Part shown: positions 23,940-64,000 of the stretch, in pieces
Layout: every line of letters starts with the position of its first letter
Numbering within the stretch: position 1 is the stretch's first letter
Assembly: GCF_944388105.1 (NCBI RefSeq)
Contig: NZ_CALXHN010000002.1
DNA from: an uncultured Gemmiger sp.
GTDB lineage: Bacteria > Bacillota > Clostridia > Oscillospirales > Ruminococcaceae
DNA length: 64,000 nt
Reading direction: 5' to 3' (one strand)
Notes under the pieces: model-generated
What the model was told of the DNA's origin: nothing
The model's database searches: none
The model's input: only the letters and a program-made list of their open reading frames with translations
Translations under genes and position numbers: made by a program

Positions 23940-24243
23940 ACAAGGCTTTTCCTGCACTTTGCAGGAAGAATTCTTCTGTATATTTCCGTGCCGCGGCGTA
24001 CCCGGAACAGGGCGCCCCGCGGTATTTTTTATGCATTTTCAGTAGAAGGTCCTGCGGCGGCCAACCCGCCGTATACGGCCCGTTTTACCCCCCTGAATGG
24101 GTGATGGCAAAGATTGTCTTTTGTGATATATTGGAAAAAATAGTCGGTTTTTCGACCAGGACGGGTCCTGGCCGGAGGCGGCACAGACAGCCGTGGTATG
24201 GCTGCCGCGCAAAAGTACGGCGGACGCAGTCAGGAGGTCGGAG

Positions 24244-25737
24244 ATGGAAAAGAGCGGAATGTTTATGGATCAATTGGAAGAATATGCAAAACAGGAAGAA
24301 TGGACCGAAGCCGCAGCTCTTCTGGAATGCACCGACGTACAGCGACTGCCCTGGCCGGAACGCAAGCGCGCCGCCCAGGTCCTGGCGGACCTGCCGGAAG
24401 AACTGTATCTGCGCATGCCGCTTCTGAGTGTGCGCCGGATCCAGCTGGGGGCCGGCCGCGGTGACCGTGAAGAGGTGCGCCGCGGTTTTTCCGTTCTCAC
24501 ATCCCTTCGGGAGCGCAGCCGGGAGAACACCCCCGAGCGCCGGAAGCTGGACAACCTTCTCAGTGCGGCATCCCTCCTTAAACGGGGGATCGATAACGCC
24601 CAGCTGCTGCTGACCCTCTCTGTTCTGTACAACGAACTGCACGGCCAGACCCCCCAGGTGGTGCTCAGCGCCACCGCCGGACGTCCCAGCGTGCTCAGCG
24701 GCGCCAAGGACCTGTCCCAGTGGGGGCGCAACTGGCGGGCGGTCAGCAGCATCGTGCGGCCCATGCTGGGAGCGCTTCTGCCCCATGGCGGGGAAGGCGC
24801 CGCGGCGGCGGCCTGCGCCGAACTGCTGTACCTGAAAAATGACATCAACAACGCGGCCCTGCAGGTGTCGGCCGCCAAATCCTCCCCGGACCCGGAGATC
24901 CGGTTTGCCGGTCTGGCCGTGACCATCCAGCTCCATCGCCTGGACCCGGCCGCCAAACAGCCGGAAGAACTGGCGGGCCGCATGGCGGACTCCCTGCGGG
25001 AAGCCGGTGCGGACTGGCTGCTGCCCAACGCCGAGGCCCTGATCACCCGCCTGGATATCGGCCGGGGACGTCTGGACCAGGTGGAACAGTGGTTGGACCG
25101 GTATGACGGAGTGGAACTGGACCGCTGCTGTCCGGACAATGCCTATGTGGTGCACACCAAAGCCCAGGCCTATCTGGCGCTGGGACGCTTCCGGGAAGCA
25201 GCCATGCTCACCGAGGACCTTTTGCATATGATCGAAGGCGACTGCCGCCCCATTGACCGCATTGAGTATCTGCTGGACGGGGCTCTGGCCTGCGAACGGA
25301 TGGGGGATGGGACCGCGGCTGCCGGCAAGGTGCGCAGTGCCCTGGACCTGGCCCAGCCTTACGGGTATGTGCGCCTGTTTGCCGACCGCGGCGCCGCCAT
25401 GCTGGCCCTGCTGGACCGCTGTGCCCGGGAGGACCCTCTGCCCGAAGAGCAGCTGCCTTTCTGGCGCAAATGTGTGGAAGCCGCGCGGCAGATGTCGCTT
25501 CTGCATCCGGCGCTGTACCAGCCCGTCACCAAGGAGGCGGACCCGCCGGAGCTCACCCGCACGGAAGTGCAGGTCATGCACCTGCTGGCCCAGGGCAAGA
25601 CCAACCGGGAAATATGCGATACCCTCAGCGTCAAGCTGCCCACGGCCAAGTTCCATATCCACAACCTGTGCGAAAAACTGGGAGCAGCCAACCGGACGGC
25701 GGCTGTTGCTGAGGCCAAAAAACAAGGACTTTTGTAG
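24244..25737 (+). CDS. MalT-like (TPR + LuxR HTH) transcriptional regulator
   Basis: Helical TPR-like body, GYVRLFADRG, LTRTEVQVMHLLAQGKTNREICDTLSVKLPTAKFHIHNLCEKLG; RBS AGGAGG; no N-terminal Walker A seen. Confidence 0.82.
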   Translation: MEKSGMFMDQLEEYAKQEEWTEAAALLECTDVQRLPWPERKRAAQVLADLPEELYLRMPLLSVRRIQLGAGRGDREEVRRGFSVLTSLRERSRENTPERRKLDNLLSAASLLKRGIDNAQLLLTLSVLYNELHGQTPQVVLSATAGRPSVLSGAKDLSQWGRNWRAVSSIVRPMLGALLPHGGEGAAAAACAELLYLKNDINNAALQVSAAKSSPDPEIRFAGLAVTIQLHRLDPAAKQPEELAGRMADSLREAGADWLLPNAEALITRLDIGRGRLDQVEQWLDRYDGVELDRCCPDNAYVVHTKAQAYLALGRFREAAMLTEDLLHMIEGDCRPIDRIEYLLDGALACERMGDGTAAAGKVRSALDLAQPYGYVRLFADRGAAMLALLDRCAREDPLPEEQLPFWRKCVEAARQMSLLHPALYQPVTKEADPPELTRTEVQVMHLLAQGKTNREICDTLSVKLPTAKFHIHNLCEKLGAANRTAAVAEAKKQGLL

Positions 25738-26677: not shown

Positions 26678-28475
26678 ACAGTACATGGAGGCTGTATGCG
26701 CCGCCGGACGTGCCGCGCAGCGCGGCAGCGCTTCCGCGGAGCTGCGCGCTCTGGCCGAACTGGAACAGGGCGCGCAGTGCTTTTTGCCGGCGGCCCACCT
26801 GCGGGATGCCTGGGGCCTTACCCGGGCGGAGACCCTGCTTCTCTATGTCTGCATTGCCTGTCTGGCCGAAGGCAAGCCTCTGCCCGGTCGGGCCCAGGCC
26901 GCCTCGCTGCTGGCCGGTTTCGGCCAGGATTTCTGGCAGGGAACGGCAGGTTTGTTTGTCCCCGGCGCCGATGGCGGCTGTCTGCACCCGGCGGCGGTGG
27001 ATTTTCTTTTGCAGCGCACGCCCCGGCCGTGGCCGGGGGCCCGTCTGGTCCTGGGAACGCCGGACACACTCTACCATTCCCAGGAGGTTCTGGAACGGAT
27101 GGAGCGGTTTGTGCAGGCCCTGACCCGCACCCCACAGCCGGTGGATACCGCAGCCGTGGTGCTGTGCGGTCCCGACGGAAGCGGCCGGCGGTTCCTGCTG
27201 GAACAGCTGGCGGTCCGCCAGGGATTTTCCCTGCTGCTTCTGGAAACGCCGGACGCGTTGTCCGCCGCCGATCTGGAAGTATACAGCCGCATTTACAACG
27301 CGCTTCCCTGTGCCGTCAACGCCCGGAATGCATGGCCGGAACTGGCCGGATTGTCCCTGGCGCTGTACACCGCCCCCGAGCAGGGGCTGGAAGGTCCGGC
27401 ACCGGCCCGGACGGTCCTGTGCTGCACGGTGCAGCCCATGACCCCGGCGGACAGTGTGCGGGCGGTGGAAAACCGCTGCGGAAAGGACGCGGCGGCCGTG
27501 TGGGCCCAGGCTGCCCGGGTCTGCCGCCCTGCGGTGGGCCGGCTGCTGGCTGCCTGCGGGCGGGCCGAAGCCCAGGCCCTGTGCGGCGAGAAGAAGGAAT
27601 CCGCCTTCCTGCAGGCGCTGCGGGAGGAAAACGGTGCCGCCCTGCGCACCGGTGCCCAGAAGCTGACCACCGGCTACCGCTTTGCCGACCTGGTGGTCTC
27701 GGCGCCGGCGGAACGCCAGCTGCGGGAGATCTGCACCTTCGCCCGGGTCCGGGGCACCGTGTACGGCGACTGGGGCTTCGGACACAAATCCGGGGCCGGC
27801 CGGGGGATCACCGCTCTGTTTTACGGTGCTTCCGGCACCGGCAAGACCATGGCCGCCGGCGTGGTGGCCAATGAGCTGGGCCTGGAACTGTACCGGGTGG
27901 ACCTGTCCCAACTGATCAGCAAATACATCGGGGAAACCCAGAAAAATATCGGCCGCATCTTCGATGGGGCCAGCCGGGGCGACTGTGTGCTCTTCTTTGA
28001 CGAGGCAGATGCCCTGTTTGCCCGCCGGTCGGACGCTTCCGACGCCCAGGACCGGTACTCCAACGCCGAGATCGCCTATCTTCTGCAGCGGACCGAACAG
28101 TATGACGGCATCATCCTGCTGGCCACCAACCTGCTGCAGAATTTTGATGAAGCCTTCCGCCGCCGCATCGGGTTCATGGTGCATTTCACCCTGCCCGATG
28201 AATCCCAGCGCCTGCGTCTGTGGCAGGCGGCCTTCCCGCCCCGGACGCCGGTGGAAGGCCTGGACCGGGAACTGCTGGCGGCACAGCTGGAACTGTCCGG
28301 CGCCGGCATCCGGTCCTGCGCGGTGTATGCGGCCTGTCTGGCCGCGGCCGCACAGGCACCGGTGACCATGGACCTGGTGGTCCGGGCGGCCCGCCGGGAA
28401 TACGAAAAAGAGGGAAAAGCCTTCCCGCCCAGACTGGACGCAATCTATCCGCAGGAAAGGAGTATGCAGGGATGA
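26649..28475 (+). CDS. CIS AAA+ ATPase (Afp15/Pvc15-like)
   Basis: Walker A GASGTGKT, VDLSQLISKYIGET, Walker B LFFDEAD, QDRYSNAEIAYLLQR, ATNL..NFDEAFRRR; degenerate first AAA (GPDGSGRR). Confidence 0.9.
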   Translation: MPTPTAVTTEQYMEAVCAAGRAAQRGSASAELRALAELEQGAQCFLPAAHLRDAWGLTRAETLLLYVCIACLAEGKPLPGRAQAASLLAGFGQDFWQGTAGLFVPGADGGCLHPAAVDFLLQRTPRPWPGARLVLGTPDTLYHSQEVLERMERFVQALTRTPQPVDTAAVVLCGPDGSGRRFLLEQLAVRQGFSLLLLETPDALSAADLEVYSRIYNALPCAVNARNAWPELAGLSLALYTAPEQGLEGPAPARTVLCCTVQPMTPADSVRAVENRCGKDAAAVWAQAARVCRPAVGRLLAACGRAEAQALCGEKKESAFLQALREENGAALRTGAQKLTTGYRFADLVVSAPAERQLREICTFARVRGTVYGDWGFGHKSGAGRGITALFYGASGTGKTMAAGVVANELGLELYRVDLSQLISKYIGETQKNIGRIFDGASRGDCVLFFDEADALFARRSDASDAQDRYSNAEIAYLLQRTEQYDGIILLATNLLQNFDEAFRRRIGFMVHFTLPDESQRLRLWQAAFPPRTPVEGLDRELLAAQLELSGAGIRSCAVYAACLAAAAQAPVTMDLVVRAARREYEKEGKAFPPRLDAIYPQERSMQG

Positions 28476-38618: not shown

Positions 38619-41288
38619 GTGAAAAAGGAAGGCAGAGGCATCCTCATTGCGGTGTTTGTGCTGGCGCTGTGCCTGAGTGTGGTGCAGAACATTGTGCTGG
38701 CATCCCACAGCTATTCCAATCTGGCCGCCGTACAGTACACGGAAGGCGGCGCGCTGCTGGCCCGCTACGGGGAGAACGGCCTGATCGTGGAGCGTGTGGA
38801 ACCGGACTCGACGGTTTCCCAGCGGTTTACGGTCCCGGAAAAGATCGGCGGCAAGCGGGTATCCCTTCAGGATATGGCGGCCGATACCCTGGGCAATGTC
38901 TATCTGCTGCTGGAACTCAGTGATCCGCTGTCCGGCAGTCCGGTTTCCCAGCAGCTGCAGGTATACCGGCCGGGACGGCTGCTCTTTCCCAAAATTTCGT
39001 CCCATACCCTGGATCCCGGCGCCACCAACGTGCGCTGGCGCTGGCTGTCCGTCACCAGTTCGGTCAGCATCATGGGCACCACCGCCGACGGCAGCAGCCT
39101 GGTGCGGGAAGTGTACGAACCCGCCGCCCTCACCCAGGGCGGAGACCTGACCGCCAAACTCAACCGGGGCTACACCATCGACCCTGACGAGGGCATCTGG
39201 CGTGCCTGGGCCATGGGCAGCGACACCGCCTATATCTCCGGTTCCGGCAAGCTGTTCCTGGCCAAGGAAGGGCAGGGCACCACCGAGATCTATCCCGCCC
39301 GCGTGCTGGAAGAGGTCATGTATCCCATTTACGCTTCGCCCATCGACACCGGCACCATGTATCTGGGCGAGCAGGAAAGCGGCGATCTGCTTTCCATCGA
39401 CCTGACCACCCGGCAGACCACCGTGCTCAAATCCGGCACCGAACCCTTTGCCGGTTCTGCCAGCTATGCGCCGGCGGATCTGGTGCAGGCGTCCATAGAA
39501 AACGAGCAGAATTTCGTGGGCGTGGTGAAAAATGAGACGGAAAACCGGTATGAGCTGATCCTGTCGGTGGACGGGCAGGTGGAAGTCATCTCCACGGTGC
39601 GTCCCGGCATTCCCATCCTGCTGGGCAATACCCTGCTGTGGACGGTGATCTGGCTGCTGGTGTTCGCCGCAGGGGCGGTGCTCCTGCCGGCGGGGCTGAA
39701 CGCCCTGCGCAGCCGCCGGACCCTGGCCGCCAGACTCATGGTGGCCGCCGTGCCGCTCCTGGCGCTGTCGGTGGTGCTGTTCGGTGCCTTTGCCTACCGG
39801 ACCTACGCCAACGCCATCCGCCAGAGCTTTGAAAAGCAGGTGGTGGATGAAGGCAACATGCTTATGGCCCTCTTCGGCACCGAGAGCTTTGACGGCATCG
39901 AGTATCCCTACGATTATACCGGCGACGATTACGGGTATCTGCTCAACCAGATGAACACCCGTTCGGTCTACACCCGCACCGCCTACTATGAGCGGGGCAT
40001 GCTGTACACCGGCGTGGACCGGGATGCCCCCTGCTTCTATCCCTTCACCGTCAACATGAACGCGGAAGCGGATTCCCTGTATCTCAAGGCCGCCTACACG
40101 GGCGCAGCCCAGACCGGCGTCCTGCGGGACAAAAACGGGGAGCGGCTGGTCTGCGTCACGCCGGTGGGCGGCATGTCGGGCAGCACCGTCTATCTGCTGG
40201 AAACCGGCATCCAGATGGACAACGTCCGGCAGTACACCCGGGCATACCTGCTGGGCTTCTGCCTGGTGGGGGCGGTGTTCCTGGCAGCGGTCAGCGCCGT
40301 GCTGGCCCTGGTGTTCCGCCGGGTGCTCAGTCCGCTGAGCAAGATCCGCAGCGGCCTGGAACAGTTTGCCCAGGGCAACCGCAACGTGCGCCTGGAAGAT
40401 GACGATTCGGAGGAATTTTCCGGTATCGTGCGGGTCTTCAACAAGATGGCCGGCGATATCGACGTCCAGATCTACAACCTGCGCCAGACCAGCGCCACCT
40501 ATTTCCGGTTCATTCCCCAGAAGGTGTTCCAGCTGCTGGGCAAGGAGAACCTGGGCGATCTGGACCTGGCCAGCGGCAAGCACGCTTCCTACCACATCCT
40601 GAGCGTGGACATGACCCTGAGCGCCCGTCTGGCCCAGGACGAGGTCAAGGAGCGCACCGACCGGTTCTTTGCCATTGTGGATGAGCTGTGCGAGGAGTAC
40701 GGCGCCGTCCTTCTCACCGACAGCGTCAACCTGCGCCGACTGCAGGTGATCTGCCCCTCCGGCGGGGACAGCGCGGTGGACATCGCCCTGGCGGCGTTGT
40801 CCCGCCTGGACAGCGTCAATGCGGCAGCACCGGTGCAGAGCCGGATGGAAGCCTTCTTCCTGGTCCACCGGGCCGAGGTGTATTACGGCATCTGCGGGGA
40901 CGAAAAGCGTCTGGTGCCCGCCATGATCAGCGGGGAGATGGACGCCCTGGCCGCGCAGGCCGGAGAGCTCCGGCAGTTCTCCAGCCGTCTGGTGGTCACC
41001 CGGGCCGCCCTGGAAGGCATGGACGAGAGCCACTACTTCCATCGGTTCATCGGCTGTCCCGAAGGCGCGGATGAAACCCGCTTCGGTCTGTATGACTTCT
41101 ATGACAGCTGTACGCCGGAAGAGATCCGCCTGATCAACGAGACCCGGGAGACCTTCGACAAGGCGATGGAACTGTACCGGGAAGGCCGCTGGTACGACGC
41201 CAAGAACATGTTTGCGGTGGTTCTGCGGGAGAACCAGTATGACAACGTTTCCCGCACCTACATTTTCCGCTGCGAAAAGCGGCTGTGA
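38619..41288 (+). CDS. Multi-TM HAMP receptor with degenerate class III adenylate/guanylate cyclase domain and C-terminal TPR-like tail
   Basis: 4 hydrophobic segments; HAMP SPLSKI..EEFSGIVRVFNKM; YFRFIPQKVFQLLG cyclase entry; FDKAMELY...DNVSRTYIFRC tail; catalytic motifs eroded. Confidence 0.75.
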   Translation: MKKEGRGILIAVFVLALCLSVVQNIVLASHSYSNLAAVQYTEGGALLARYGENGLIVERVEPDSTVSQRFTVPEKIGGKRVSLQDMAADTLGNVYLLLELSDPLSGSPVSQQLQVYRPGRLLFPKISSHTLDPGATNVRWRWLSVTSSVSIMGTTADGSSLVREVYEPAALTQGGDLTAKLNRGYTIDPDEGIWRAWAMGSDTAYISGSGKLFLAKEGQGTTEIYPARVLEEVMYPIYASPIDTGTMYLGEQESGDLLSIDLTTRQTTVLKSGTEPFAGSASYAPADLVQASIENEQNFVGVVKNETENRYELILSVDGQVEVISTVRPGIPILLGNTLLWTVIWLLVFAAGAVLLPAGLNALRSRRTLAARLMVAAVPLLALSVVLFGAFAYRTYANAIRQSFEKQVVDEGNMLMALFGTESFDGIEYPYDYTGDDYGYLLNQMNTRSVYTRTAYYERGMLYTGVDRDAPCFYPFTVNMNAEADSLYLKAAYTGAAQTGVLRDKNGERLVCVTPVGGMSGSTVYLLETGIQMDNVRQYTRAYLLGFCLVGAVFLAAVSAVLALVFRRVLSPLSKIRSGLEQFAQGNRNVRLEDDDSEEFSGIVRVFNKMAGDIDVQIYNLRQTSATYFRFIPQKVFQLLGKENLGDLDLASGKHASYHILSVDMTLSARLAQDEVKERTDRFFAIVDELCEEYGAVLLTDSVNLRRLQVICPSGGDSAVDIALAALSRLDSVNAAAPVQSRMEAFFLVHRAEVYYGICGDEKRLVPAMISGEMDALAAQAGELRQFSSRLVVTRAALEGMDESHYFHRFIGCPEGADETRFGLYDFYDSCTPEEIRLINETRETFDKAMELYREGRWYDAKNMFAVVLRENQYDNVSRTYIFRCEKRL

Positions 41289-41316: not shown

Positions 41317-43146
41317 TTGTTCAAGCTGCTGGCAAGTATTTTCAAGCGTGTGGTGACGGCCGTCACCAACCCCTTCCGCATGCTGGTCGTGCGGATCCAG
41401 CGGATGTTCAACGTCAACATCCTGACGGCCAAGCTCATCCCGCCTCTTACCAAAAAGGTCAAGGCCCTGGTCACCCTCAAACCCCAGTCGCCCCAGGATT
41501 ATTTCAGTGTGGGGCGGTACTGGGTCTACAAAAAGCTGTTCCTGACCCTGATCCTGGTGCTGTGTGCGGCGGTGTTCCTGTACTTTTCCATGTTTGCCCC
41601 AAAGGTGACACCCAAACCCTCCCAGCCGGAACAGGTCATGACCACGGTGACCTTTGATTTTGACGATATGGCCCTGGCCGACTACACGGGCGTGGCCAAC
41701 ATCCGGGCAGCGGACGGCACCGTGGTGTATGTGGGGGATGTGGTGGCCGGCGTATGCACCGGCAACGGCACCCTGCGGGACCGCAAGGGCCGCCTGGTGT
41801 ATGAGGGCGGCTTTGAAAACAACCAGTACAGCGGCCAGGGGGTGCGCTACTGGCCCTCCGGCAATCCCATGTACGAGGGCGGGTTTGAGAAAAACCAGTA
41901 CAGCGGGGAAGGGGTCCTGTACGCGGAGGACGGCCGCACGGTCCTGTATGCAGGCAGCTTCAAGGGCGGCCTGCGGGACGGCGCCGGCAAAGCGTACGGG
42001 GAATCCGGGACCCTGCTCTATGAGGGCGAGTTCGCGGAGGACCTCTACCACGGTTCCGGCACGGAATATTACGAAAACGGCATCATTGCCTACACCGGCC
42101 AGTTCTTCCGCGGGGAACCCCAGGGCGAAGGCACCCTGTACAGTACCCAGGGACGTGCCCTCTACACCGGCTCGGTGTACGCCGGCAAGATCAATTACAG
42201 CGCCCTGGTGGGGGCCACACTGGCCGACCTGGAAGCGGCCTTCACCGAGACCCCCTGCATCTACTACAACGACACCGAAAGCGTGTTCCTCTACCAGGAA
42301 GCCGGCGTGGTCATTACAGTGGACTGCCGGGTCCGGGTGGATGTGTGGGAAAACGCCAACGCCGCGGCGGACCAGAGTGCCCCGCTGTATTACATGCCCG
42401 CCTCGGTGCAGACAACCGGCGCCACGGTGCGGGCGGTACACGCCCAGGGCGGAACCGGCATCCGCACGGTGGGGTGGGTGAATTCCGGCGGGGAATCCTC
42501 TTCCGGCGGGACTTCCGCCACCCCGGCACCGGCCACCCCGGCTCCCACGGCGGTGCCGGCCACGCCGGTCCCCGCCGCGATGGCCCCGTCCGGGAGCACC
42601 GCTTCCGGCGGTACCGCGGCTTCGGTCACCGCGCCGACCCCCAGCCCGACACCCAATCCGACCCCCATCCCGTCGCCCACCCCGTCGCCTGTGCCGTCGG
42701 CCGCTGCGGCCCCGGATTTCATCCAGAAAAACCTGACCCTGTATTTTGAGATCGACAGCAACATCTGGCAGGCGGAGGCCGACCTGGACAAGACCAAGGT
42801 CTTTGTCAGCGAGGTCACGGTATGTGCGGACAACATCCCGCTGGAAACTCTTTCCGCGGACGTGTATGAGGAGGACCGGCCTCCGGCCATCCAGGATTGC
42901 GTGGCCATTGAGCGCCTGCGCCGGGACGAGGCCACGGCATTTTCCAATGTGACCTTCCAGCTGGACCAGCAGAACAAGCTGTTTGTGGAGGTCAGCGGCG
43001 TGAGTTATGCCAACCAGATCCAGCGCTACGGGCTGGAAAAGGATGGTCTGGTATACGAATACTGCTATCCCTACGACACCGGCACCGTGCTGGATACCGA
43101 CACCGCCGGCACTGCGCCCATGTATTATTCCATCCGAAAGGGGTGA
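41317..43146 (+). CDS. Membrane-anchored MORN-repeat protein with Pro/Thr linker
   Basis: TTG start; TM LFLTLILVLCAAVFLYF; about seven YxGxFxxGxxxGxG repeats; PTPSPTPNPTP linker. Confidence 0.82.
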   Translation: MFKLLASIFKRVVTAVTNPFRMLVVRIQRMFNVNILTAKLIPPLTKKVKALVTLKPQSPQDYFSVGRYWVYKKLFLTLILVLCAAVFLYFSMFAPKVTPKPSQPEQVMTTVTFDFDDMALADYTGVANIRAADGTVVYVGDVVAGVCTGNGTLRDRKGRLVYEGGFENNQYSGQGVRYWPSGNPMYEGGFEKNQYSGEGVLYAEDGRTVLYAGSFKGGLRDGAGKAYGESGTLLYEGEFAEDLYHGSGTEYYENGIIAYTGQFFRGEPQGEGTLYSTQGRALYTGSVYAGKINYSALVGATLADLEAAFTETPCIYYNDTESVFLYQEAGVVITVDCRVRVDVWENANAAADQSAPLYYMPASVQTTGATVRAVHAQGGTGIRTVGWVNSGGESSSGGTSATPAPATPAPTAVPATPVPAAMAPSGSTASGGTAASVTAPTPSPTPNPTPIPSPTPSPVPSAAAAPDFIQKNLTLYFEIDSNIWQAEADLDKTKVFVSEVTVCADNIPLETLSADVYEEDRPPAIQDCVAIERLRRDEATAFSNVTFQLDQQNKLFVEVSGVSYANQIQRYGLEKDGLVYEYCYPYDTGTVLDTDTAGTAPMYYSIRKG

Positions 43147-47213: not shown

Positions 47214-47585
47214 ATGGAAGATTTTGCCACCGAATTTGAGTTCGATCTGCCCAAAGGGTACATCGATGCGGCCGGCACCCTGCACAAGCACGGGGTCATG
47301 CGTCTGGCCACGGCGGCGGACGAGATCCTGCCTTTGCGGGACCCCCGGGTGGTGCAGAATCCCGGTTACCTGACCATCATCCTGCTTTCCCGGGTCATCA
47401 CCAGTCTGGGCACCGTTCCCAAGATCGATCCCCGCGTCATCGAGCGGCTCTACTCCTCCGACCTGGCGTTCTTGCAGAGCATGTACCAGCGCATCAACGC
47501 CGTGGAGCCCATCGTGGAGACTTGTGTCTGCCCGGAGTGCGGCCATACCTTTGAGCATCAGGTAAATTTTACTTCAGCGGAGTAA
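47214..47585 (+). CDS. Tail assembly chaperone (G-like)
   Basis: FEFDLPKGYID, MRLATAADEI, DLAFLQ..Y..IN, CPECGH; directly after the tube gene. Confidence 0.8.
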   Translation: MEDFATEFEFDLPKGYIDAAGTLHKHGVMRLATAADEILPLRDPRVVQNPGYLTIILLSRVITSLGTVPKIDPRVIERLYSSDLAFLQSMYQRINAVEPIVETCVCPECGHTFEHQVNFTSAE

Positions 47586-48300: not shown

Positions 48301-51096
48301 ATGCTGCGGCCTGTGCTGGACCCTGTTCTGAGCAGGGAGATCCTTGCCCGCTATACCACCTTTGCCGGTTCGGTGGGGGCACCCGCTCCCATGGAACACC
48401 TGGCCCCCGCCGCGGCGGCACAGCCTGCCCGGTATGAGACCTATGTGGAAAACCTGCACCAGGTCACACAGGCCATCCGCAAAAACTATCTGATCAACCT
48501 GCAGCTGGATCTGCGGTTCCTGGCCCTGCAGCTGGCTTCGGCTGTGGAACAGGAAAGCCGGACCGAATCCCGGCGCATGCAGATGCTGGAACAGCAGGTC
48601 ACCGTCCTGCGGGAGGAGAGCGGCCGGCTGAAAGCCGCCCTCCGCACCGCCCCCCGCCGCCAAGGGGGCCGCTCCCGCGGACCGGACCGGGCCGCACGGC
48701 CCGCCGATGTCCGGTCTGTGGTAGAGAACGCCCGTCTGGCGGCAAAAGCCCCCTGGCCGCTGCTGCCCCAGCCGGAAACACCGGAAAAGCAGGGGACGGC
48801 CCCGGCATCGGGTCGGACGCCTGTCCCGGCGGAAACGGTTTTTCCCCACCCTGGCCGCATGCCGGTATCCGGCACGGCGGTGACGGAAATCCGTACTTCC
48901 TCCGCCCCGCAGGGCGGTCCGCTGCCGGTCCCGGCGGCGGAGTCTGCCCCGGCGGGTGTCCTTCCCCCCGGGGAGCCCAAGGCGGCGGTATCTCCCATGA
49001 TGCCGGTACAGCGGGTACTGCCCCGGCAGGAACCGCCGACACCGGAAAACAACGCAGCGCAGGAAAGCCGCCGGCAGCCCCTGTCCGCCGATTCCCACGG
49101 CAGGGCTTCCGCGCCGAAGGCGGCCCCCTCCGCCCCGGCTCCCGGGGAAAAAGCCCCGTCTCCCGCATCCGCCGCCGCGGCTTCCCCCCGTGTCCCTCTG
49201 GGACATACAGAACCTGATGAGCGGGACGCCTGGAAGGCGCCCCTGCCCGATCCCCGTCCCGCACGTCTGCAGCGGCCGGAACCGGCCCGACGCATCCTGC
49301 GCACAGACGTGACGGAACGGGCGTCAACCCGGCAGGACGCGCCCGCAGCTACCCGGCCGCCGGCCCCCGTGCGGGCGGACGGACCCCGCCAGACCCCGGA
49401 AACAGCGCACGCCGTTTCCGCTTCCGCAGCCCGGACGGACAGTCCGGTGCCAATGCCCAAACCCGAAAGCCGATCGCTTCCGACCCTCCGGCAGCAGCCG
49501 TCGGCAGCGGCGCAAGACCAGGCTTTGTCGGAAAGCCCGGAACCCCGGGAAGGGGTTGCCATCCGCACCGCGCCGCTGGTCCATGCCGCACCGGCCCTTT
49601 CCCCGGCCGCACCCTCTGCGTCACAGGCGGAACCCTGGCACAGTGACCGGCGGGACGGACTTGCCGCACCCCGGCAGGAAAAAGAAAGCCTGTCGGTCCC
49701 GGTGCAGCCGGCCCGTTCCGCGGCGCCTCCGGCGGAGGCGGCATCGCTGGTGCACGCCGCACCGACGCCCACGGTATGGGAACAACGGCCCGGGCAGAAG
49801 ATTTCTCCCCGGCCTTTCGCTGTGCCGGCCGCTTCGTTGCCGGTTCCCGGAAATCCGTCGGTGGGTTTTTCCGCAGGAGAGACCGGCCGGACGCCTTTGC
49901 GGGCGCCCACGCCGGCATCCCCGGCCGGTATCCCTGCCGCACAGCGGGTACTGCCCCGGCAGCAAATGCCGCCGGAACAGACCGCTGAAACCCGGCGGAT
50001 CCGGGCCCCGGAACCTCTGGCGGCGCCTGCATCCGGGCTCCGGGAGGGAGGGGGAAAGACCCCCGACAGTCTCCGGAAAACGGAAGCCCCCAGAACCCTT
50101 AAAACTGAGGAGTCCGCCCGCACCTGGACGGCAGAGGCCCGGACCCCGGACCGGTCCATCCGCCCGGAAAAGGTGGCGGCCCCGGAAACCGACCTGCCTG
50201 CCCGCACCGCTTCCGTTCCCGCCATGACAGCCACACCGCTGCTCCACCGCCTCTCTCCGGCGGAGGAAAAAGCGGCCGGTGCCCGGGAATCCGCCGCGGG
50301 GAAGGCACCGGATGTCCGCACTCCGGCGGCAATGTCCTTTCCGATGCCGGAGCGGGTGCCGGCCGTCTCTGCGCCGGCTGCTTTCCGAGGAATGTCCCGC
50401 GCCCCTTCCCCCGGTGGGCGGAAGGCGGAAGAAGGCAGTACCGTTTCCACGACGGAAGAGAATAACCGGCCCGCCGCCCGGTGGGATGCCGCCCCGCTGC
50501 GCACCCTGCCGGATTTTGTGCGCACGCCCATGATCCCCCGCGGGGGGATGGCATCGGTCCTTTCCGGGAACGGTACTGTCACCCGGCCGGAAGCCGGATA
50601 TGGGCTGCCCGCAGGGGCAGCCGCCGGACCAGCCCTGGTCCGTACAACGGCGGGCCTCACCCCTCCGGCGGTGCCGATGGCGCCGCTGGCCGCCGCCTCC
50701 CCGGTGATCCCGGCCGGCCAGACCCCGGCAGACAAGGCACCTTTGATGCCCCTGCCGCAGGGGAAAGCAGGAATCGGCATGCCGCCCGCCATACCGGCGG
50801 GCAGTCCGGCGCCCATGGAATTGCGCCGCACCCCGGTCCCTGCCCAAGGCACGGCCCCGACGGGCAGTGCAGAATGGCAATCCGACGGCATCCGGACGGT
50901 GCACCGCACCCGGACGGTACACCGGGAGACCATACAGCAGCCCACGACCGATGCCACGATCCGCCTTCCGGGAGAGACCCTCTCCGCTCCGGTATCCCGG
51001 ACCCTGGGCCCCGCCGAGGTGGAGCGGATCGCCGACAAGGTCTACCGGCAGATCGAAGAACGCCTGCGCAGTGAAAAGATGAGAAGGGGGATGTGA
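48301..51096 (+). CDS. Pro/Ala-rich, probably disordered 931-aa protein at the tape-measure position
   Basis: N-terminal coiled coil, low-complexity middle, C-terminal helix VERIADKVYRQIEERLRSEKMRRG. Confidence 0.65.
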   Translation: MLRPVLDPVLSREILARYTTFAGSVGAPAPMEHLAPAAAAQPARYETYVENLHQVTQAIRKNYLINLQLDLRFLALQLASAVEQESRTESRRMQMLEQQVTVLREESGRLKAALRTAPRRQGGRSRGPDRAARPADVRSVVENARLAAKAPWPLLPQPETPEKQGTAPASGRTPVPAETVFPHPGRMPVSGTAVTEIRTSSAPQGGPLPVPAAESAPAGVLPPGEPKAAVSPMMPVQRVLPRQEPPTPENNAAQESRRQPLSADSHGRASAPKAAPSAPAPGEKAPSPASAAAASPRVPLGHTEPDERDAWKAPLPDPRPARLQRPEPARRILRTDVTERASTRQDAPAATRPPAPVRADGPRQTPETAHAVSASAARTDSPVPMPKPESRSLPTLRQQPSAAAQDQALSESPEPREGVAIRTAPLVHAAPALSPAAPSASQAEPWHSDRRDGLAAPRQEKESLSVPVQPARSAAPPAEAASLVHAAPTPTVWEQRPGQKISPRPFAVPAASLPVPGNPSVGFSAGETGRTPLRAPTPASPAGIPAAQRVLPRQQMPPEQTAETRRIRAPEPLAAPASGLREGGGKTPDSLRKTEAPRTLKTEESARTWTAEARTPDRSIRPEKVAAPETDLPARTASVPAMTATPLLHRLSPAEEKAAGARESAAGKAPDVRTPAAMSFPMPERVPAVSAPAAFRGMSRAPSPGGRKAEEGSTVSTTEENNRPAARWDAAPLRTLPDFVRTPMIPRGGMASVLSGNGTVTRPEAGYGLPAGAAAGPALVRTTAGLTPPAVPMAPLAAASPVIPAGQTPADKAPLMPLPQGKAGIGMPPAIPAGSPAPMELRRTPVPAQGTAPTGSAEWQSDGIRTVHRTRTVHRETIQQPTTDATIRLPGETLSAPVSRTLGPAEVERIADKVYRQIEERLRSEKMRRGM

Positions 51097-59316: not shown

Positions 59317-60417
59317 GTGAAGCAGCCGCTGAAACAAGTCAACTTCTATAAGCGCGCGCTGATGGCGGGCTGTTTCCACGGCTTTACGCCGGATGCGGAA
59401 CTGTGCCTGCATCTGCAGGACGCCGGGGGCGGCGCCTGGTTCGCCGCCTTTGACACCGCCGATGCGGACAGTACCTACAACCGTCTGGTGGTGGAAGGCG
59501 ACTTCGGGGGCAGCAAGCTGGAGATCCTGGTGGCGGTCAGCCCCACGGACACCGAGCCCACGGGGGAAAGTCTGGCGGCCTTTCTGGCGTCGGCAGCCTC
59601 CCCGGCGGAAAAGCTGGCCCGCCTCACCGCCCTGCGGCATCTGCGGGCGGTGGACCGGCAGGACATCCTGCTGCACAGCCTGCAGGGGCGGTGGGTGTAC
59701 CTTGGCATCTGCGCTTTGCCCCAGGACAGCGCCGACTGTGTGCTGCGGGGACTGCGGCTGGAATTCCCCCGGTACAGCTTCACCCAGTACTTCCCCGAGA
59801 TCTATCAGCAGGACGACTTTTTCCGCCGTTATATCGCGGTGTTTCAGTCGCTGTACCTGGACCTGGAAAGCCGGGTGGATGAGGTGCCCCGTCTGTTGGA
59901 TTATGAGAGCGCCGCTGACGATCAGGTGGAGACCCTGGCCGGGTGGCTGGGCATCGACACCGCCGGCGGGCTGTTCGGGCCGGACCAGCTGCGCAGCCTG
60001 ATCCGGGACAGCCAGCTCTACCAGGGCGGCAAGGGGACCCGGGCCGCCCTGGAAAAGGTGGTGGAGCTGGTCTGCGGCATCCGCCCGCAGATCGTGGAGT
60101 ATTTCCAGTGGAGCCGCCTGCCTATGCCTGCCGCCCGCCGCCGGCTGTATGAGACCCTGTACGGCGGGGACGGCAACACCTTCTGCGTCATTCTGAACAT
60201 GACGGCCCATCCCGGTCCCCTGCCGGTCAGCGAGGCCCAGCTGGACCGGCTGGTGGAAGCATACAGCATGCTGGGAACGAAACACCGTCTGGTGTTTCTG
60301 CGCCGGTGCAGCTACACCGACACCCACTGCTACCTGGACGTGAACAGCTGCCTGTCCACGCCCGAAATGGCGGCGGTGGACGGCGTGACCCTGGGCGGAT
60401 ACTTTACCATCGGATGA
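59317..60417 (+). CDS. P2 gpI-like baseplate/tail protein with N-terminal extension
   Basis: YFPEIYQ, LAGWLG, KGTRAALEKVV..VCG..P.IVEYF. Confidence 0.82.
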   Translation: MKQPLKQVNFYKRALMAGCFHGFTPDAELCLHLQDAGGGAWFAAFDTADADSTYNRLVVEGDFGGSKLEILVAVSPTDTEPTGESLAAFLASAASPAEKLARLTALRHLRAVDRQDILLHSLQGRWVYLGICALPQDSADCVLRGLRLEFPRYSFTQYFPEIYQQDDFFRRYIAVFQSLYLDLESRVDEVPRLLDYESAADDQVETLAGWLGIDTAGGLFGPDQLRSLIRDSQLYQGGKGTRAALEKVVELVCGIRPQIVEYFQWSRLPMPAARRRLYETLYGGDGNTFCVILNMTAHPGPLPVSEAQLDRLVEAYSMLGTKHRLVFLRRCSYTDTHCYLDVNSCLSTPEMAAVDGVTLGGYFTIG

Positions 60418-60457
60418 TCGGCGCTGCCGGACCCGTACCGAAAAGGAGGAGAACCCT

Positions 60458-63001
60458 ATGCCGGAATATACCAGACGAAAACAGTCGCAGTCGGAACAGC
60501 TGGAGGATCTGCTCAGGTCCCGCATCGCCGATGCCCGGGGCCCCGTGACCGAAAAAAGCCTGCCGGAGGATGTGCGCTCGGACTTTGAATCCCGCAGCGG
60601 GTACTCCGCCCGGAATGTGCGGGTGGTGGAATCCGATCTGCCCCAGGCAACCTATGCCAACGCGGTCACCCAGGGCAGCACCATCCATTTCCCCCGGGGC
60701 GGCTATCACCCCGCTGATGCGGAAGGCCGCCGGGTGCTCATGCACGAACTGAGCCATACGGTGCAGCAGGCCAGGGGAGAGGTGCGCCCCAACTTCGCGG
60801 GCCAGATCAACGAAACGCCGGCCCTGGAACAGGCGGCGGACCGGGGATTCAGTGCTCCGGAGTCCGACGCTGCCCCCGGCGTCGCACCGGCCCCCATGCC
60901 CTCCGCACCCGCCGGTGCCCCCATGCAGCGGGACGGCACCACTTTGGAGCGCATTGCCAAGGAGCACGGCATGACAAAGGAAGAAGTGCTGAAGAACGTG
61001 AGGTGGTGGACCGGACACAAACTCAAAAAGCAGGATAAAAAAGAAGAAAGAGAGCGCCAGAAGAAACTCTTTGCGGATACGATAGCGGCCATGGAAGCCA
61101 AGCTCACCAGGCCCAAGTCGCCGTACGAGATCCATCTGGAAAATCAGATCAAGGCCCTGCCCGATCCGGAGGAAAAAGGTATCGGCATACGGGAGCGGCA
61201 CAGACGCAAGAAGGCCAAGGAACAACTGGAAAAGCAGCTGGAGGAACACAAGCAGACCAACGATCGGATGATGGAAGACATGCTCCTGCAGCAGCTGGGC
61301 GGTGTCGGCGACCACGACGAAAAGGAACTGCGGGCCGCCATCCACAAGGCGCGGCGCCATAACCAGAAAGAAGCGCTGCAACAGTCTTTTGCAAAATCCA
61401 AGACGGCCCGCCGTCTGACCGCAGAGGATAACCAGGGCGAATACGATGCACCAACAAGAACATTTGTGGACAATGGCGGGGGCCACACCCAGGTCATCAA
61501 GGCCGACCCTGCGGCCGGACAAGCCGCCGGTCAAGACTCTCTCAGCCGTTATGAACAGCTGGGCCAGCGCAGCGAAGGACTGAACAAGGCGGCCAGCTAT
61601 ACGGACAAGGGAGCCACCGTGGCGGATGTGGCGCTGGGCTCCGGAGAAAAGGTGCGGGAAGCCCATCAGGCGGTGGGAATTGACGGCGGCAAGGCCTATG
61701 AGCAGTTCTCCGGCAGCACGGCGGCCGCCCATGCCTCCGGTCTGACCAGCATGGCCGGCGTGGTGAGCAGCGGGCTGGATGCAGCGGAATCCGTTGTGCA
61801 GGCCCGACAGAGTGCCCTTGCCGGGGACCGGGAAGGACAGGTTCACCACACCCTGGACTCTATGGCCAAGGGAAGCGGTGCTTTGCAGAGTTTTTACTCC
61901 GCATTCGGGGAGGACGGCCTGGGCGGGGCGGCCAATATGGTCATCCCGGCGGAAGCTGCCACGGGCGCGGCGGTCGTCCAGAATGTCCTTACTGCGGTGC
62001 GGGCCGGTTCGGATCTGCATGCGGCCCACAATCGGAAAAAGAAATTTGACGCCATCAGAAATCAAGAGGGCGTGAGTTATGACTCTGAGGACCCGGAACA
62101 GGTCGAAGCTTACGAGGCGGCTAATCTGGGACGATATAACGCCAAAAAGAACGAAGCCACCGCCGCGGTGGAGCTGGCGGGTGCCGTGATGGGAACGGCG
62201 GGCAACGTGGCAGCCGTGGTCCCGGGGGCACAGCCGGTGGGGTTGGCCCTGTCCACTGTCAGCAAAGGCACAGCAGTGGCCAAGGCTGCTACCGACAAGG
62301 GCATGCAGCACTATGCCCGGAAAAAGGTTGTGGGCGATCTGATGGCGTCAGAAGATGTACAGCGGGCCGAACAGCAGGTGAATACCTCCACTCTGGATGA
62401 AAAGGACAAGGTCAAGGCCATGGCCCGGGCCAGCCATGCGAAGGATGAAAAGCAGCTGTATAACCGTATGGTCGCCCACCAGGCCGTCCGCCTGCATCAG
62501 AATATGGGGGATGGCCAGCTCTCGGGCTATGATGACCAGGTCCTGCAGGCGGCCGGCTTCGACCCTGAGAAGTACGGAGACGTGCCGCTGGAGCTGCTCA
62601 ACAAGCGGCTGGGCGGTGTGGTGTCGGCCCAGCAGGGACTCGTCAACCGGGAAGAGCAAAAGGCGGCGAAACAGGAAGCCAAAGAAGCCGAGATCCGGGC
62701 TGCAACGATCAAAGCCGCAGAGGTAAGTGCCAGAAACCGGGGGAACGGGGAGACCTACAACCGGTATATGGCCAATACCCTCCAGACCCTGCGGGAAGGC
62801 GATGTACAGCTTCCCAGGCAGGAACAGCCCCGGCAGCCGGTGGTCCGGCCTTTGCCCAAGGAGAAAGCCGAGCGCAAGGCGGCAGAGGAAAAACGCCACC
62901 AGGAGCAGATGGCCTACATGCAGAAATACGGTATCGCCAAACGGCTGCCGCCGAGTAAGAAAAAGAACACTGCCCCCACCGCGACTCCCATCTTCGCATA
63001 A
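60458..63001 (+). CDS. DUF4157 (eCIS core domain) protein with ~690-aa C-terminal candidate effector region
   Basis: LPEDVRSDFE..SG....VRV, ANAVTQGSTIHF, VLMHELSHTVQQ (HExxH), PMQR linker, then charged helical and Gly/Ala-rich hydrophobic segments. Confidence 0.82.
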   Translation: MPEYTRRKQSQSEQLEDLLRSRIADARGPVTEKSLPEDVRSDFESRSGYSARNVRVVESDLPQATYANAVTQGSTIHFPRGGYHPADAEGRRVLMHELSHTVQQARGEVRPNFAGQINETPALEQAADRGFSAPESDAAPGVAPAPMPSAPAGAPMQRDGTTLERIAKEHGMTKEEVLKNVRWWTGHKLKKQDKKEERERQKKLFADTIAAMEAKLTRPKSPYEIHLENQIKALPDPEEKGIGIRERHRRKKAKEQLEKQLEEHKQTNDRMMEDMLLQQLGGVGDHDEKELRAAIHKARRHNQKEALQQSFAKSKTARRLTAEDNQGEYDAPTRTFVDNGGGHTQVIKADPAAGQAAGQDSLSRYEQLGQRSEGLNKAASYTDKGATVADVALGSGEKVREAHQAVGIDGGKAYEQFSGSTAAAHASGLTSMAGVVSSGLDAAESVVQARQSALAGDREGQVHHTLDSMAKGSGALQSFYSAFGEDGLGGAANMVIPAEAATGAAVVQNVLTAVRAGSDLHAAHNRKKKFDAIRNQEGVSYDSEDPEQVEAYEAANLGRYNAKKNEATAAVELAGAVMGTAGNVAAVVPGAQPVGLALSTVSKGTAVAKAATDKGMQHYARKKVVGDLMASEDVQRAEQQVNTSTLDEKDKVKAMARASHAKDEKQLYNRMVAHQAVRLHQNMGDGQLSGYDDQVLQAAGFDPEKYGDVPLELLNKRLGGVVSAQQGLVNREEQKAAKQEAKEAEIRAATIKAAEVSARNRGNGETYNRYMANTLQTLREGDVQLPRQEQPRQPVVRPLPKEKAERKAAEEKRHQEQMAYMQKYGIAKRLPPSKKKNTAPTATPIFA

Positions 63002-63032: not shown

Positions 63033-64000
63033 ATGAATCCGATAGAATATATAGCAGCCCGGGCGCTGGATACCTGGGACCCGCCTGAAAGCAGCGACCC
63101 CCTGTACCCGCTGTGGCAGGAATACGCTGACCTGGAGGAGGAAGACCACAAAGCCATGCAAAACAGTCTGCCCCTGCAGCGGTTTGCACTGCTGGCACGG
63201 GAGTACTGTGCCGGACCGGGGCAGGAAGCTGCCGCTCTGGGCCTGGGTCTGGCGGTGGCCTGCGCCCTGCACCCGGGCACCGAAGCACGCCTGATCCCGG
63301 AAGGGCAACCCCTGTGTTTTGCCCGGGTGTGGCAGGCAGCTTACGGATGCAGTGTGTGGGAAACCCCGGACACAGCCCGGGAAACGCTGGCCCAGCTGCG
63401 CCTGTTCCTGCTCTCGGAAGAGCCGGACAGCTTTCTGGCGCCTTTGCAGGCGGACGAACGCCTGCTGGGCTACCTGGGCGGCGGGGATGAGATCGACCCT
63501 CTGCTGAAAGAGGTGGCCGCCTATGCGCGGACCGGACCGGGGGAGGACCTTCTGATCCGCACCGAGCTGGCGGATACCCTCACCCGGGACCTGGCGGATG
63601 CCCGCCAGACCGGGGACCTGCTGCATCTGAGCGGGGCGGAGGGGATCGGCAAATTCTTTGCCCTGTCCCATGCCGCTGCCCGCAACGGGGTGGAGCTGCT
63701 GGCGGTGGATTGCCGCATGCTGGCGGCCAACCCGCTGCCCACCATCTGGAAGATGGTGGACAGCATCCGGCGGGAAGCCCTCTTCTATGGCGCCTGCATC
63801 TGCCTGCGCCATGCGGACTGCTTTGTGCAGCGTGCCCAGCCGGAACAGGCGGAACCGGAAGCCTGGGAAAAACGGTTTTACCATCTGTGTGCGGCGCCGC
63901 TGCTGGAAAAAGGGGCCGCCGTCTGCATCTGCACCGACGGTCCGGCCAGCTTCCTGCCCTGGGCGGGGCGGCCGGTGCGGCAGCTGGAATTTCCCGACTG
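63033..64000 (+). CDS. Second Afp15-like AAA ATPase, N-terminal part (runs off right edge)
   Basis: Manual translation MNPIEYIAAR..; LQADERLLGYL and LHLSGAEGIGK match the layout of the first ATPase's N-terminal half; RBS AAGGAG; no stop in window; catalytic second AAA domain not visible. Confidence 0.7.
   Translation, partial: MNPIEYIAARALDTWDPPESSDPLYPLWQEYADLEEEDHKAMQNSLPLQRFALLAREYCAGPGQEAAALGLGLAVACALHPGTEARLIPEGQPLCFARVWQAAYGCSVWETPDTARETLAQLRLFLLSEEPDSFLAPLQADERLLGYLGGGDEIDPLLKEVAAYARTGPGEDLLIRTELADTLTRDLADARQTGDLLHLSGAEGIGKFFALSHAAARNGVELLAVDCRMLAANPLPTIWKMVDSIRREALFYGACICLRHADCFVQRAQPEQAEPEAWEKRFYHLCAAPLLEKGAAVCICTDGPASFLPWAGRPVRQLEFPD

Follow-up and report, generated by a model that had tools for sequence, protein, structure and literature searches.

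A DUF4157 protein with a lineage-specific helical C-terminal region as possible lumen cargo of an Oscillospiraceae contractile injection system

The operon for an extracellular contractile injection system (eCIS) in a 64,000-nucleotide stretch of contig NZ_CALXHN010000002.1 from an uncultured Gemmiger sp. (hereafter the window) includes, late in its gene order and followed only by an AAA+ ATPase gene, a gene for a protein of 847 amino acids (aa) with an N-terminal DUF4157 domain (60458–63001, + strand). We tentatively read this protein as a vertically inherited, lineage-specific lumen cargo of Oscillospiraceae eCIS that is tape-measure-related or translocator-like. Between an enzyme toxin and a tape-measure-like, possibly membrane-active passenger, the helical tail is more likely the latter. 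By analogy, the best reading groups the protein with the cargo known from Streptomyces as Tme and as Sle1 plus its DUF4157 partner Sle2, a class of which it would be a lineage-restricted variant. An earlier note on this DNA, made from the sequence alone, had proposed a swapped-in, pore-forming or translocator-like effector; no other single reading is as likely as an effector or translocator-like role, and the two remaining parts of that proposal fared less well (below).

Gene, domain, and synteny evidence for a possible cargo protein

The open reading frame (ORF) is a real gene, with an ATG start, 847 codons plus stop, and a strong ribosome-binding site (AAGGAGG, 60443–60449, + strand) 8 nt before the ATG. 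Its product matches the eCIS_core/DUF4157 profile (Pfam PF13699) at aa 35–107 (60560–60778) with 60.8 bits against a gathering cut-off of 22 bits, covering profile positions 2–78 of 79. The HExxH motif is intact, and the HELSH reported earlier indeed occupies aa 96–100 (60743–60757), with its first His codon at 60743; H96, E97, H100, and Q104 are invariant among relatives. We therefore class the protein, by sequence, as a member of the DUF4157 family. This above-threshold domain with its intact motif, borne by the only DUF4157 gene in the window, is one reason for reading the protein as cargo, since DUF4157 marks both lumen cargo (Cgo1/Cgo2) and spike-associated proteins (Tme, Sle2). Ahead of the domain lies a short charged segment modeled with low confidence (aa 1–34, 60458–60559; predicted local distance difference test, pLDDT, 39–44), a candidate loading signal, judging from the corresponding parts of Cgo1/Cgo2. 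Behind it, a Pro/Ala-rich disordered linker (aa 108–159, 60779–60934) ends in an Ala-Pro-Met-Gln (APMQ) motif that is invariant in the family (P155, Q157), and the PMQR linker singled out in the earlier note is found at aa 155–158 (60920–60931).

The position of the gene also argues for cargo. The Afp15/Pvc15/Alg15-like ATPase gene starts at about 63033, 31 nt downstream in the same orientation, and runs off the window at 64000 (664 aa in contig L088); neither a terminator nor a promoter-like site was found between the two genes on the + strand. Across phyla, in a set of 80 diverse eCIS loci, a long DUF4157 protein (880–1300 aa, with 1–10 hydrophobic segments) likewise adjoins the AAA ATPase gene (L013, L022, L023, L025, L026, L028, L036, L037, L039, L042, L043, L049, L066, L072, L076, L079, and L080). 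The distance from gene to matched ATPase segment ranges from 12 bp to 1.4 kb, and is below 400 bp in 14/17 loci. Most close relatives of the window's gene carry a conserved acidic ORF of 161–163 aa between the DUF4157 gene and the ATPase (L002 12944–13429; L006 12714–13202; L004 2199–2690; L087 9004–9489). This ORF belongs to the YbjN family, two of four scanned copies exceeding the Pfam threshold (23.6 and 25.6 bits vs a cut-off of 22), and YbjN falls in a fold class like that of type III secretion chaperones. The three genes for DUF4157, YbjN, and ATPase proteins stand together in L001 and L092, separated from the baseplate genes. Both the YbjN-family neighbor and the joint travel of the three genes favor a loaded cargo. 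The YbjN-like ORF is missing beside the gene in the window and in L086, and no copy occurs anywhere else in the window.

A third line of evidence comes from two relatives, P0016 (844 aa) and P0018 (629 aa), which keep the C-terminal module in the same slot with a short Lys/Ser-rich N-terminus in place of DUF4157. The helical module, and not DUF4157, is therefore the constant element of the family, which again supports the cargo reading.

A predicted all-helical C-terminal region

AlphaFold2, given an alignment of 15 sequences, predicts an almost all-alpha 847-aa protein (mean pLDDT 64, predicted TM-score, pTM, 0.53), with confident blocks at aa 160–340, 510–590, and 600–760 and disorder at 340–439. 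A separate model of aa 436–725 is better (pLDDT 75.5, pTM 0.71) and shows a bundle of three helices of 34–42 residues each plus a small helical domain. Combining model, composition, and alignment, we divide the C-terminal region into five parts, all on the + strand. Residues 160–340 (60935–61477) form long Lys/Glu/Arg-rich helices (183–216, 244–280, and 285–312; pLDDT about 70–90) with the conserved motifs KAxRHNQK and DGxxYD (Y329). Residues 341–439 (61478–61774) are low-complexity Gly/Ala/Ser/Thr sequence of low model confidence, where relatives P0008, P0009, and P0011 carry large insertions. Residues 440–630 (61775–62347) are Gly/Ala/Ser-rich, weakly hydrophobic helices that include a long hairpin (546–587/592–629); a charge-free stretch of 30 residues (aa 573–602, 62174–62263) spans its Pro-Gly turn, and the Gly/Ala stretch quoted in the earlier note corresponds to aa 569–599 (62162–62254). 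Residues 640–725 (62375–62632; pLDDT 85–92) make up the small helical domain, which is conserved better than any other part of the C-terminal region (N669, A676, H680, G700, D702, K705, G719; motif GFxDPxKYxNIxVxxLxxKxGG). Residues 726–847 (62633–62998) comprise a Lys/Glu/Ala helix, a Pro/Gln linker, a terminal helix, and a basic tail without conservation in the family, where tails are 53–265 aa long.

As the earlier note had anticipated, the C-terminal region is an unrecognized, all-helical module; no enzymatic domain was detected in it. Its 688 residues have no match in Pfam (E ≤ 5), PHROGs (E ≤ 1), or NCBIfam (E ≤ 1), nothing below E 0.15 among PDB sequence profiles, and none by tblastn against 50,697 phage genomes. 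Foldseek searches of PDB and BFVD with the full model and with aa 436–725 gave no match at E ≤ 1e-3. A C-terminal profile run against a database of 5.8 billion proteins returned nothing, possibly through failure of the word prefilter on Gly/Ala-rich words. Neither the sequence libraries nor the PDB profiles yielded a catalytic family for the C-terminal region, no nuclease motif or family was found, and the gene has no tandem or internal repeats that we could find. The combination of a near all-alpha prediction, a bundle of three long helices with a small domain, and the lack of a matched catalytic family counts toward a nonenzymatic cargo.

Membrane activity of the C-terminal region is plausible, in a qualified form. 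The Lys/Glu and Gly/Ala/Ser helices described earlier are both predicted, but the latter are only weakly hydrophobic (maximum Kyte–Doolittle 19-mer 1.51; family range 1.1–1.7). On a translocon-type scale, no member of the family has a transmembrane-grade segment (minimum sums +2.2 to +6.9). With no classical transmembrane segments, any membrane action would therefore be of the posttranslational, oligomeric kind. The earlier description of the module as pore-forming finds no significant fold or sequence match, and hydrophobicity stays below the transmembrane level. Assignment to the alpha pore formers of the ClyA/AhlB type is not supported (Foldseek E 0.3–1.2, probability ≤ 0.14, TM-score ≤ 0.2). 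For the hairpin at aa 526–620 (62033–62317), the family profile has its best PDB sequence match in residues 2121–2215 of XptA2 (Tc toxin A), which include a similar Gly-Gly turn; with E 0.19 and a hhalign probability of 17%, this match is not significant and counts as a lead, not as evidence. The top nonsignificant Foldseek lists name AhlB/SmhB/ClyA-type alpha pore formers in PDB and tape measures in the viral set (best E 0.05 there), which is telling, yet not evidence. Like ClyA/AhlB/SmhB, the TcA channel tip, and type III translocators, the modeled protein would combine a long antiparallel helical bundle with an uncharged small-residue hairpin at one end; unlike them, it gives only insignificant matches (Foldseek E ≥ 0.3; hidden Markov model, HMM, E 0.19), and its hydrophobicity is lower than that of true membrane hairpins.

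The small domain at aa 640–725 raises the question of a conventional toxin, in which this module with its invariant H680, D702, and K705 would be the active part and the rest a delivery scaffold. DUF4157 serves as a strong marker for toxins of eCIS, many with unannotated C-termini, and no other part of the C-terminal region is as well conserved or as confidently modeled. We nevertheless consider this quite improbable: no enzyme or toxin family is matched by sequence or fold, the domain amounts to about 85 residues of short helices, and there is no immunity gene. The absence of a small immunity ORF between the gene and the ATPase, remarked on in the earlier note, holds in the window, where nothing small intervenes. 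Relatives have a single small neighboring ORF, which is chaperone-like; the window and L086 have lost it but retained the DUF4157 gene. Moreover, one module is kept in all loci, unlike the variable C-termini of polymorphic toxins. With this common C-terminal family and no small ORF in the window, the protein does not fit a polymorphic toxin with cognate immunity.

Evolution of the C-terminal region

The whole protein matches only 15 clusters among 5.8 billion proteins, and its C-terminal 688 residues have only 10 matches among 1.84 billion cluster representatives. All close relatives come from metagenome-derived assemblies, the closest named genome being Candidatus Ruthenibacterium merdigallinarum (Oscillospiraceae), and a metagenome scan with the neighboring P2_I-like protein recovered two near-identical contigs only. 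The relatives align along the full length of the 847-aa protein, with a strongly conserved N-terminal domain and a fast-diverging remainder. In P0008, P0009, and P0011, for example, identity is 64–70% in the N-terminal domain vs about 25–30% in the C-terminal region. Conserved islands persist throughout the latter (KAxRHNQK, DGxxYD, GD at 456–457, the hairpin, and N669/H680/G700/D702/K705/G719). The gene is single-copy, is present in all related loci, and occupies the slot between a 366-aa P2_I-like gene and the ATPase in L002, L003, L006, L086, L087, and L095, gene order being assessed in the loci whose contigs reach far enough.

These comparisons bear on the earlier proposal of a swap, under which a resident DUF4157 head would recently have gained its C-terminal region from a foreign source by recombination. 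The A-rich turn past ~60930 that prompted it is real: GC drops from 0.70 (60650–60949) to 0.53 (60950–61249) and AT skew rises to 0.55 just past 60930, the dip and the A-richness originating from aa 160–340. GC at third codon positions (GC3) of aa 160–847 is 0.715 vs 0.803 expected from the codon usage of neighboring genes, a deficit of about 0.09. Codons rare in the neighbors are in synonymous excess (AGA, ACT, TCT, GGT, and GGA; Arg P = 8e-8, Thr P = 2e-6). The codon shift noted earlier thus has a real, modest synonymous part but is mostly driven by amino-acid content, as the break lies chiefly at codon positions 1 and 2 and Lys plus Glu reach up to 32%. The conservation gap between head and tail in P0008, P0009, and P0011, and the unrelated C-termini carried by DUF4157 heads in other eCIS lineages, would also suit a swap. 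Against this, synonymous divergence (dS) relative to L086, an 80%-identical relative, is 0.20–0.40 in the C-terminal subregions, equal to the 0.33–0.42 of the flanking structural genes. Relative to contig L088 (99.2% nucleotide identity), the C-terminal region varies no more than its neighbors. Full-length collinearity holds in all related loci, and GC3 is similarly lowered (0.742) in another fast-evolving gene of the operon, a 931-aa ORF at 48301–51096. Finally, the C-terminal profile finds no possible donor outside the lineage: against all ORFs of 87 fetched loci the HMM recovers its own family only, with nothing in the 80 other eCIS loci. A recent swap is, on these grounds, highly improbable and already largely refuted. 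The region appears to have been inherited vertically with the injection system, at least recently.

The ratio of nonsynonymous to synonymous divergence (omega) against L086 is 0.07 in the DUF4157 part, 0.30–0.59 in the rest of the protein, and 0.04–0.16 in structural genes, which indicates purifying yet relaxed selection on the C-terminal region and is compatible with a maintained cargo function. Lys/Glu content and this relaxed constraint explain the composition and codon shift better than foreign origin does. A hhalign comparison with a long Streptomyces DUF4157 protein aligned the domain alone. Across eCIS lineages, then, DUF4157 heads bear unrelated C-termini, and module exchange is ancient and not specific to this locus.

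Comparison with characterized DUF4157 systems

In the Streptomyces lividans phage tail-like particle, the DUF4157 protein Sle2 binds the tube initiator and Sle1. Sle1, which joins a coiled coil to a helical hairpin and a globular domain of helices, is ejected, gets as far as lipid membranes, and can be lost with the particles remaining intact (bioRxiv 10.1101/2025.11.06.686954). Here, too, a DUF4157 module would be tied to a nonenzymatic helical protein in which a long coiled coil is combined with a helical hairpin and a small helical globular domain, a likeness of architecture by description only, drawn from models of moderate confidence. By the same analogy, the 847-aa protein would be cargo rather than a structural part, with some members of the family lacking a DUF4157 in cis (P0016 and P0018). 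That this closest architectural analogue is ejected, reaches membranes, and is dispensable for particle structure supports a cargo role here. Unlike in Sle1/Sle2, a single polypeptide holds both the DUF4157 domain and the helical part here, the gene stands at the 3′ end beside the ATPase and not upstream of the sheath gene, the hairpin is much less hydrophobic, and the host is a gut Clostridia member.

Tme of the Streptomyces davawensis contractile injection system (CIS) combines DUF4157 with a coiled coil and transmembrane helices and binds spike proteins; it has about 2,250 aa and a C-terminal EndA-like nuclease and is encoded directly upstream of the baseplate genes (PMC11126660). The protein described here resembles it in an N-terminal DUF4157 followed by a coiled coil and hydrophobic helices, in large disordered parts, in being among the largest ORFs of its cluster and conserved in its own CIS lineage, and in its adjacency to the ATPase, as in Tme-type loci. 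It differs in having 847 aa, no nuclease, and a gene downstream of the baseplate genes. Tme-like proteins were defined by relative ORF length, an N-terminal DUF4157, and conserved synteny (Nagakubo 2024). Only the N-terminal DUF4157 of these three traits is found here, and the gene is not the largest in the cluster, being shorter than a Baseplate_J gene (963 aa) and the 931-aa ORF. Nor does it show the remote homology to phage tape measures of Tme-like proteins (PHROG, Pfam, and phage tblastn searches).

Cgo1 and Cgo2 of AlgoCIS are DUF4157 lumen cargo loaded through Alg15 (PMC8894135; bioRxiv 10.64898/2026.05.27.728243). By analogy, the window's protein would likewise be a DUF4157 cargo with a variable C-terminal region that a cluster-encoded AAA+ ATPase helps to load. 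In Cgo, a long disordered stretch ahead of DUF4157 is the loading signal, whereas the domain here has only about 34 residues in front of it; AlgoCIS also has a separate Afp14-type tape measure (Alg14), with no recognizable counterpart in this locus.

Several of these points weigh against the cargo reading. Significant sequence or fold likeness to Tme-like proteins, tape measures, translocators, or pore-forming toxins was not found, and the hydrophobic helices fall under transmembrane thresholds. The position of the gene departs from that of both tme and sle1/sle2 and agrees, together with the size of the protein, with that of Afp14, the tape measure. AlgoCIS data, moreover, show DUF4157 itself to be dispensable for loading.

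A tape-measure alternative and a competing open reading frame

The last two observations on position and size suggest a different role, in which the 847-aa protein would be the length ruler of a lineage II eCIS, an equivalent of Afp14/Pvc14/Alg14 with a DUF4157 head, whose helical C-terminal region spans the tube lumen during assembly, sets the length of the particle, and leaves on firing as a by-product. We judge this main rival unlikely, with several points in its favor. The gene occupies the Afp14 slot, after Afp11/Afp12-like baseplate genes and directly before the Afp15-like ATPase (by comparison with the pADAP order). Lineage II eCIS have been reported without recognizable Afp14 homologs. 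The gene is single-copy in every related locus and lacks an immunity gene, the protein is all-alpha with a variable helical middle, and its top viral Foldseek matches, although nonsignificant, are tape measures. At the published tape-measure coefficient of about 0.22 nm per residue, 847 aa would correspond to about 190 nm, a plausible eCIS length. The earlier note had taken a C-terminus that is invariant across loci and nontoxic as pointing to a tape-measure or structural protein; the same C-terminal family does occur across loci, which is half of that expectation, and the tape-measure alternative therefore stays alive.

Length itself is a difficulty for a ruler. The family ranges from 629 to 973 aa (collinear core 508–749) despite structural proteins that are 70–96% identical in these loci, and the length-changing insertions of P0008, P0009, and P0011 are low-complexity Gly/Ser/Asn/Pro sequence, not helical. 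The C-terminal tail, which binds the baseplate hub in tape measures, is not conserved here. BLASTP against pADAP Afp14 gave a best E of 0.5, no PHROG or Pfam tape-measure family was matched, internal repeats are lacking, and the composition is very different, so that by sequence the protein is not a member of the Afp14 family. It resembles Afp14/Pvc14/Alg14 in its slot between baseplate and ATPase genes, its helical middle, and a comparable size class, and differs from them in sequence, in its unconserved C-terminus and variable family length, and in carrying a DUF4157 domain, which is not reported in those proteins. Set beside the features expected of Afp14/Cis14, its N-terminus is alpha/beta (DUF4157), its C-terminus alpha only, and its middle helical by prediction. 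The gene is detached from the structural genes in L001 and L092, and the particles that survive Sle1/Sle2 loss intact also speak against a ruler.

A further objection is the 931-aa ORF (48301–51096, + strand), a competing candidate. It is flanked by the second tube gene on one side and the tube initiator gene on the other, in the Afp6/phage tape-measure slot and after a tail-assembly-chaperone-like gene, and is rich in Ala (17%), Pro (15%), and Arg (10%). No Pfam, PHROG, or NCBIfam family matches it. Its Pro/Ala-rich body has many indels between relatives. Near-invariant, by contrast, are the motifs GSPAPMELRR and GIRTVHRTRT and the 27 residues at its C-terminal end (AEVERIADKVYRQIEERLRSEKMRRGM). 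The near-invariant C-terminal helix (VERIADKVYRQIEERLRSEKMRRG) resembles the Afp6/DUF5908 helix (VERIKQEVLEQLLERG), which occupies the same gene slot, with weak statistics (hhalign probability 8.5% over 17 residues). The 931-aa ORF measures 931 vs 938 aa in two loci where the DUF4157 protein measures 847 vs 973 aa; a search with its N-terminus returned one fragment only, and the length conservation therefore rests on these two loci. The ORF may be a giant relative of Afp6 (DUF5908, the spike plug), the real tape measure, or both, and is thus an alternative candidate for the ruler or spike-plug role.

Proposed mode of action

Starting from what is directly established (gene, domains, synteny, family-wide collinearity, evolutionary rates, and a helical prediction), we infer loading, ejection, membrane action, and processing of the 847-aa cargo as follows. 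The short N-terminal segment and the DUF4157 domain would target the protein to the assembling particle, with loading dependent on the AAA+ ATPase encoded directly downstream; in most relatives, a YbjN-family gene lies in between. The HExxH domain may cleave at the invariant APMQ, or the ATPase may recognize it. Long charged helices and small-residue helices would let the protein lie extended inside the tube lumen until contraction expels it, after which the Gly/Ala-rich hairpin with the small conserved helical domain would work noncatalytically at the target envelope or within it.

Ruler and passenger could also be one. In that case, the protein would be the long-missing tape measure of lineage II systems, would be processed at APMQ by its metallopeptidase-like DUF4157 head, would be expelled before any other protein, and would insert its Gly/Ala hairpin into the target membrane. 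We hold this combination to be improbable; if true, it would link channel formation by phage tape measures directly to eCIS delivery, and the DUF4157, YbjN-chaperone, and AAA-ATPase genes would constitute a portable cargo-loading module. The wider interest of the family is that DUF4157 proteins whose C-termini lack annotation make up half of all predicted eCIS toxins, and that lineage II eCIS, the majority, have no identified tape measure. It offers a compact test case (about 850 aa, no enzyme domain found, single-copy, always beside the loader ATPase), with natural variants lacking DUF4157 or the chaperone-like partner gene. It is therefore suited to asking what DUF4157 does, how cargo couples to the AAA+ loader, and whether helical cargo of a tape-measure-like kind has a structural role, acts on membranes, or does both. 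The family comes from gut Oscillospiraceae, where contractile injection systems have barely been studied. Its practical value stays modest unless experiments reveal it to be a ruler or translocon.

DUF4157 proteins and the linker motif across eCIS loci

Other eCIS loci carry tandem arrays of DUF4157 proteins of 400–600 aa instead of a long one beside the ATPase, which suggests two classes of DUF4157 proteins. The ATPase neighborhood of one Paenibacillus eCIS has no DUF4157 gene within 9 kb. A motif [LVIM]QR[KR] occurs in 71/158 DUF4157 proteins (loci L008–L085) vs 7.4 expected from shuffles, mostly about 55 residues before the domain and sometimes about 40 aa after it; the literature we searched makes no mention of it. 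The invariant APMQ(R) of the present family is a post-domain variant of this motif, which could be a recognition or processing site. A stricter pattern, P-[hydrophobic]-Q-R downstream of HExxH, is not enriched (11 observed vs 6.4 expected).

Operon context

The genes surrounding the DUF4157 gene bear out its assignment to an eCIS operon, with sheath, tube, spike, baseplate, and ATPase genes. The operon opens with a Pvc16_N terminator gene (start 43007), followed by sheath (44933) and tube (46688) genes, a 123-aa tail-assembly-chaperone-like gene (47214–47585, + strand; phrog_508, E 7e-8), the second tube gene (47765), the 931-aa ORF, the CIS_tube initiator gene (51100), GPD and base_V spike genes (51937 and 53034), two Baseplate_J genes (54276 and 57223), and an Afp12-like Tail_P2_I-like baseplate protein gene (59317–60417, + strand), the immediate upstream neighbor of the DUF4157 gene; a gp25 gene is also among them. 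The 123-aa ORF, with one tube gene on either side, has a CxxC...H zinc-ribbon-like motif at its end.

Upstream of the eCIS genes (24193–25737, 38619–41288, and 41317–43146) lie genes for a MalT-TPR/GerE (LuxR) regulator, a HAMP-domain protein, and a MORN-repeat protein. In L002, L086, and L095, a conserved pair of dynamin-like GTPase genes follows the ATPase on the opposite strand. The trio of DUF4157, YbjN, and ATPase genes in L001 and L092 is arranged head-to-head with a 279-aa gene, a second AAA gene, and a gene for a repeat protein of roughly 2,400 aa with Fn3_assoc/CHB_HEX_C domains. The window has a 2,529-aa homolog of this repeat protein upstream of the eCIS operon (28220–35809), which may be the fiber or adhesin of the system.

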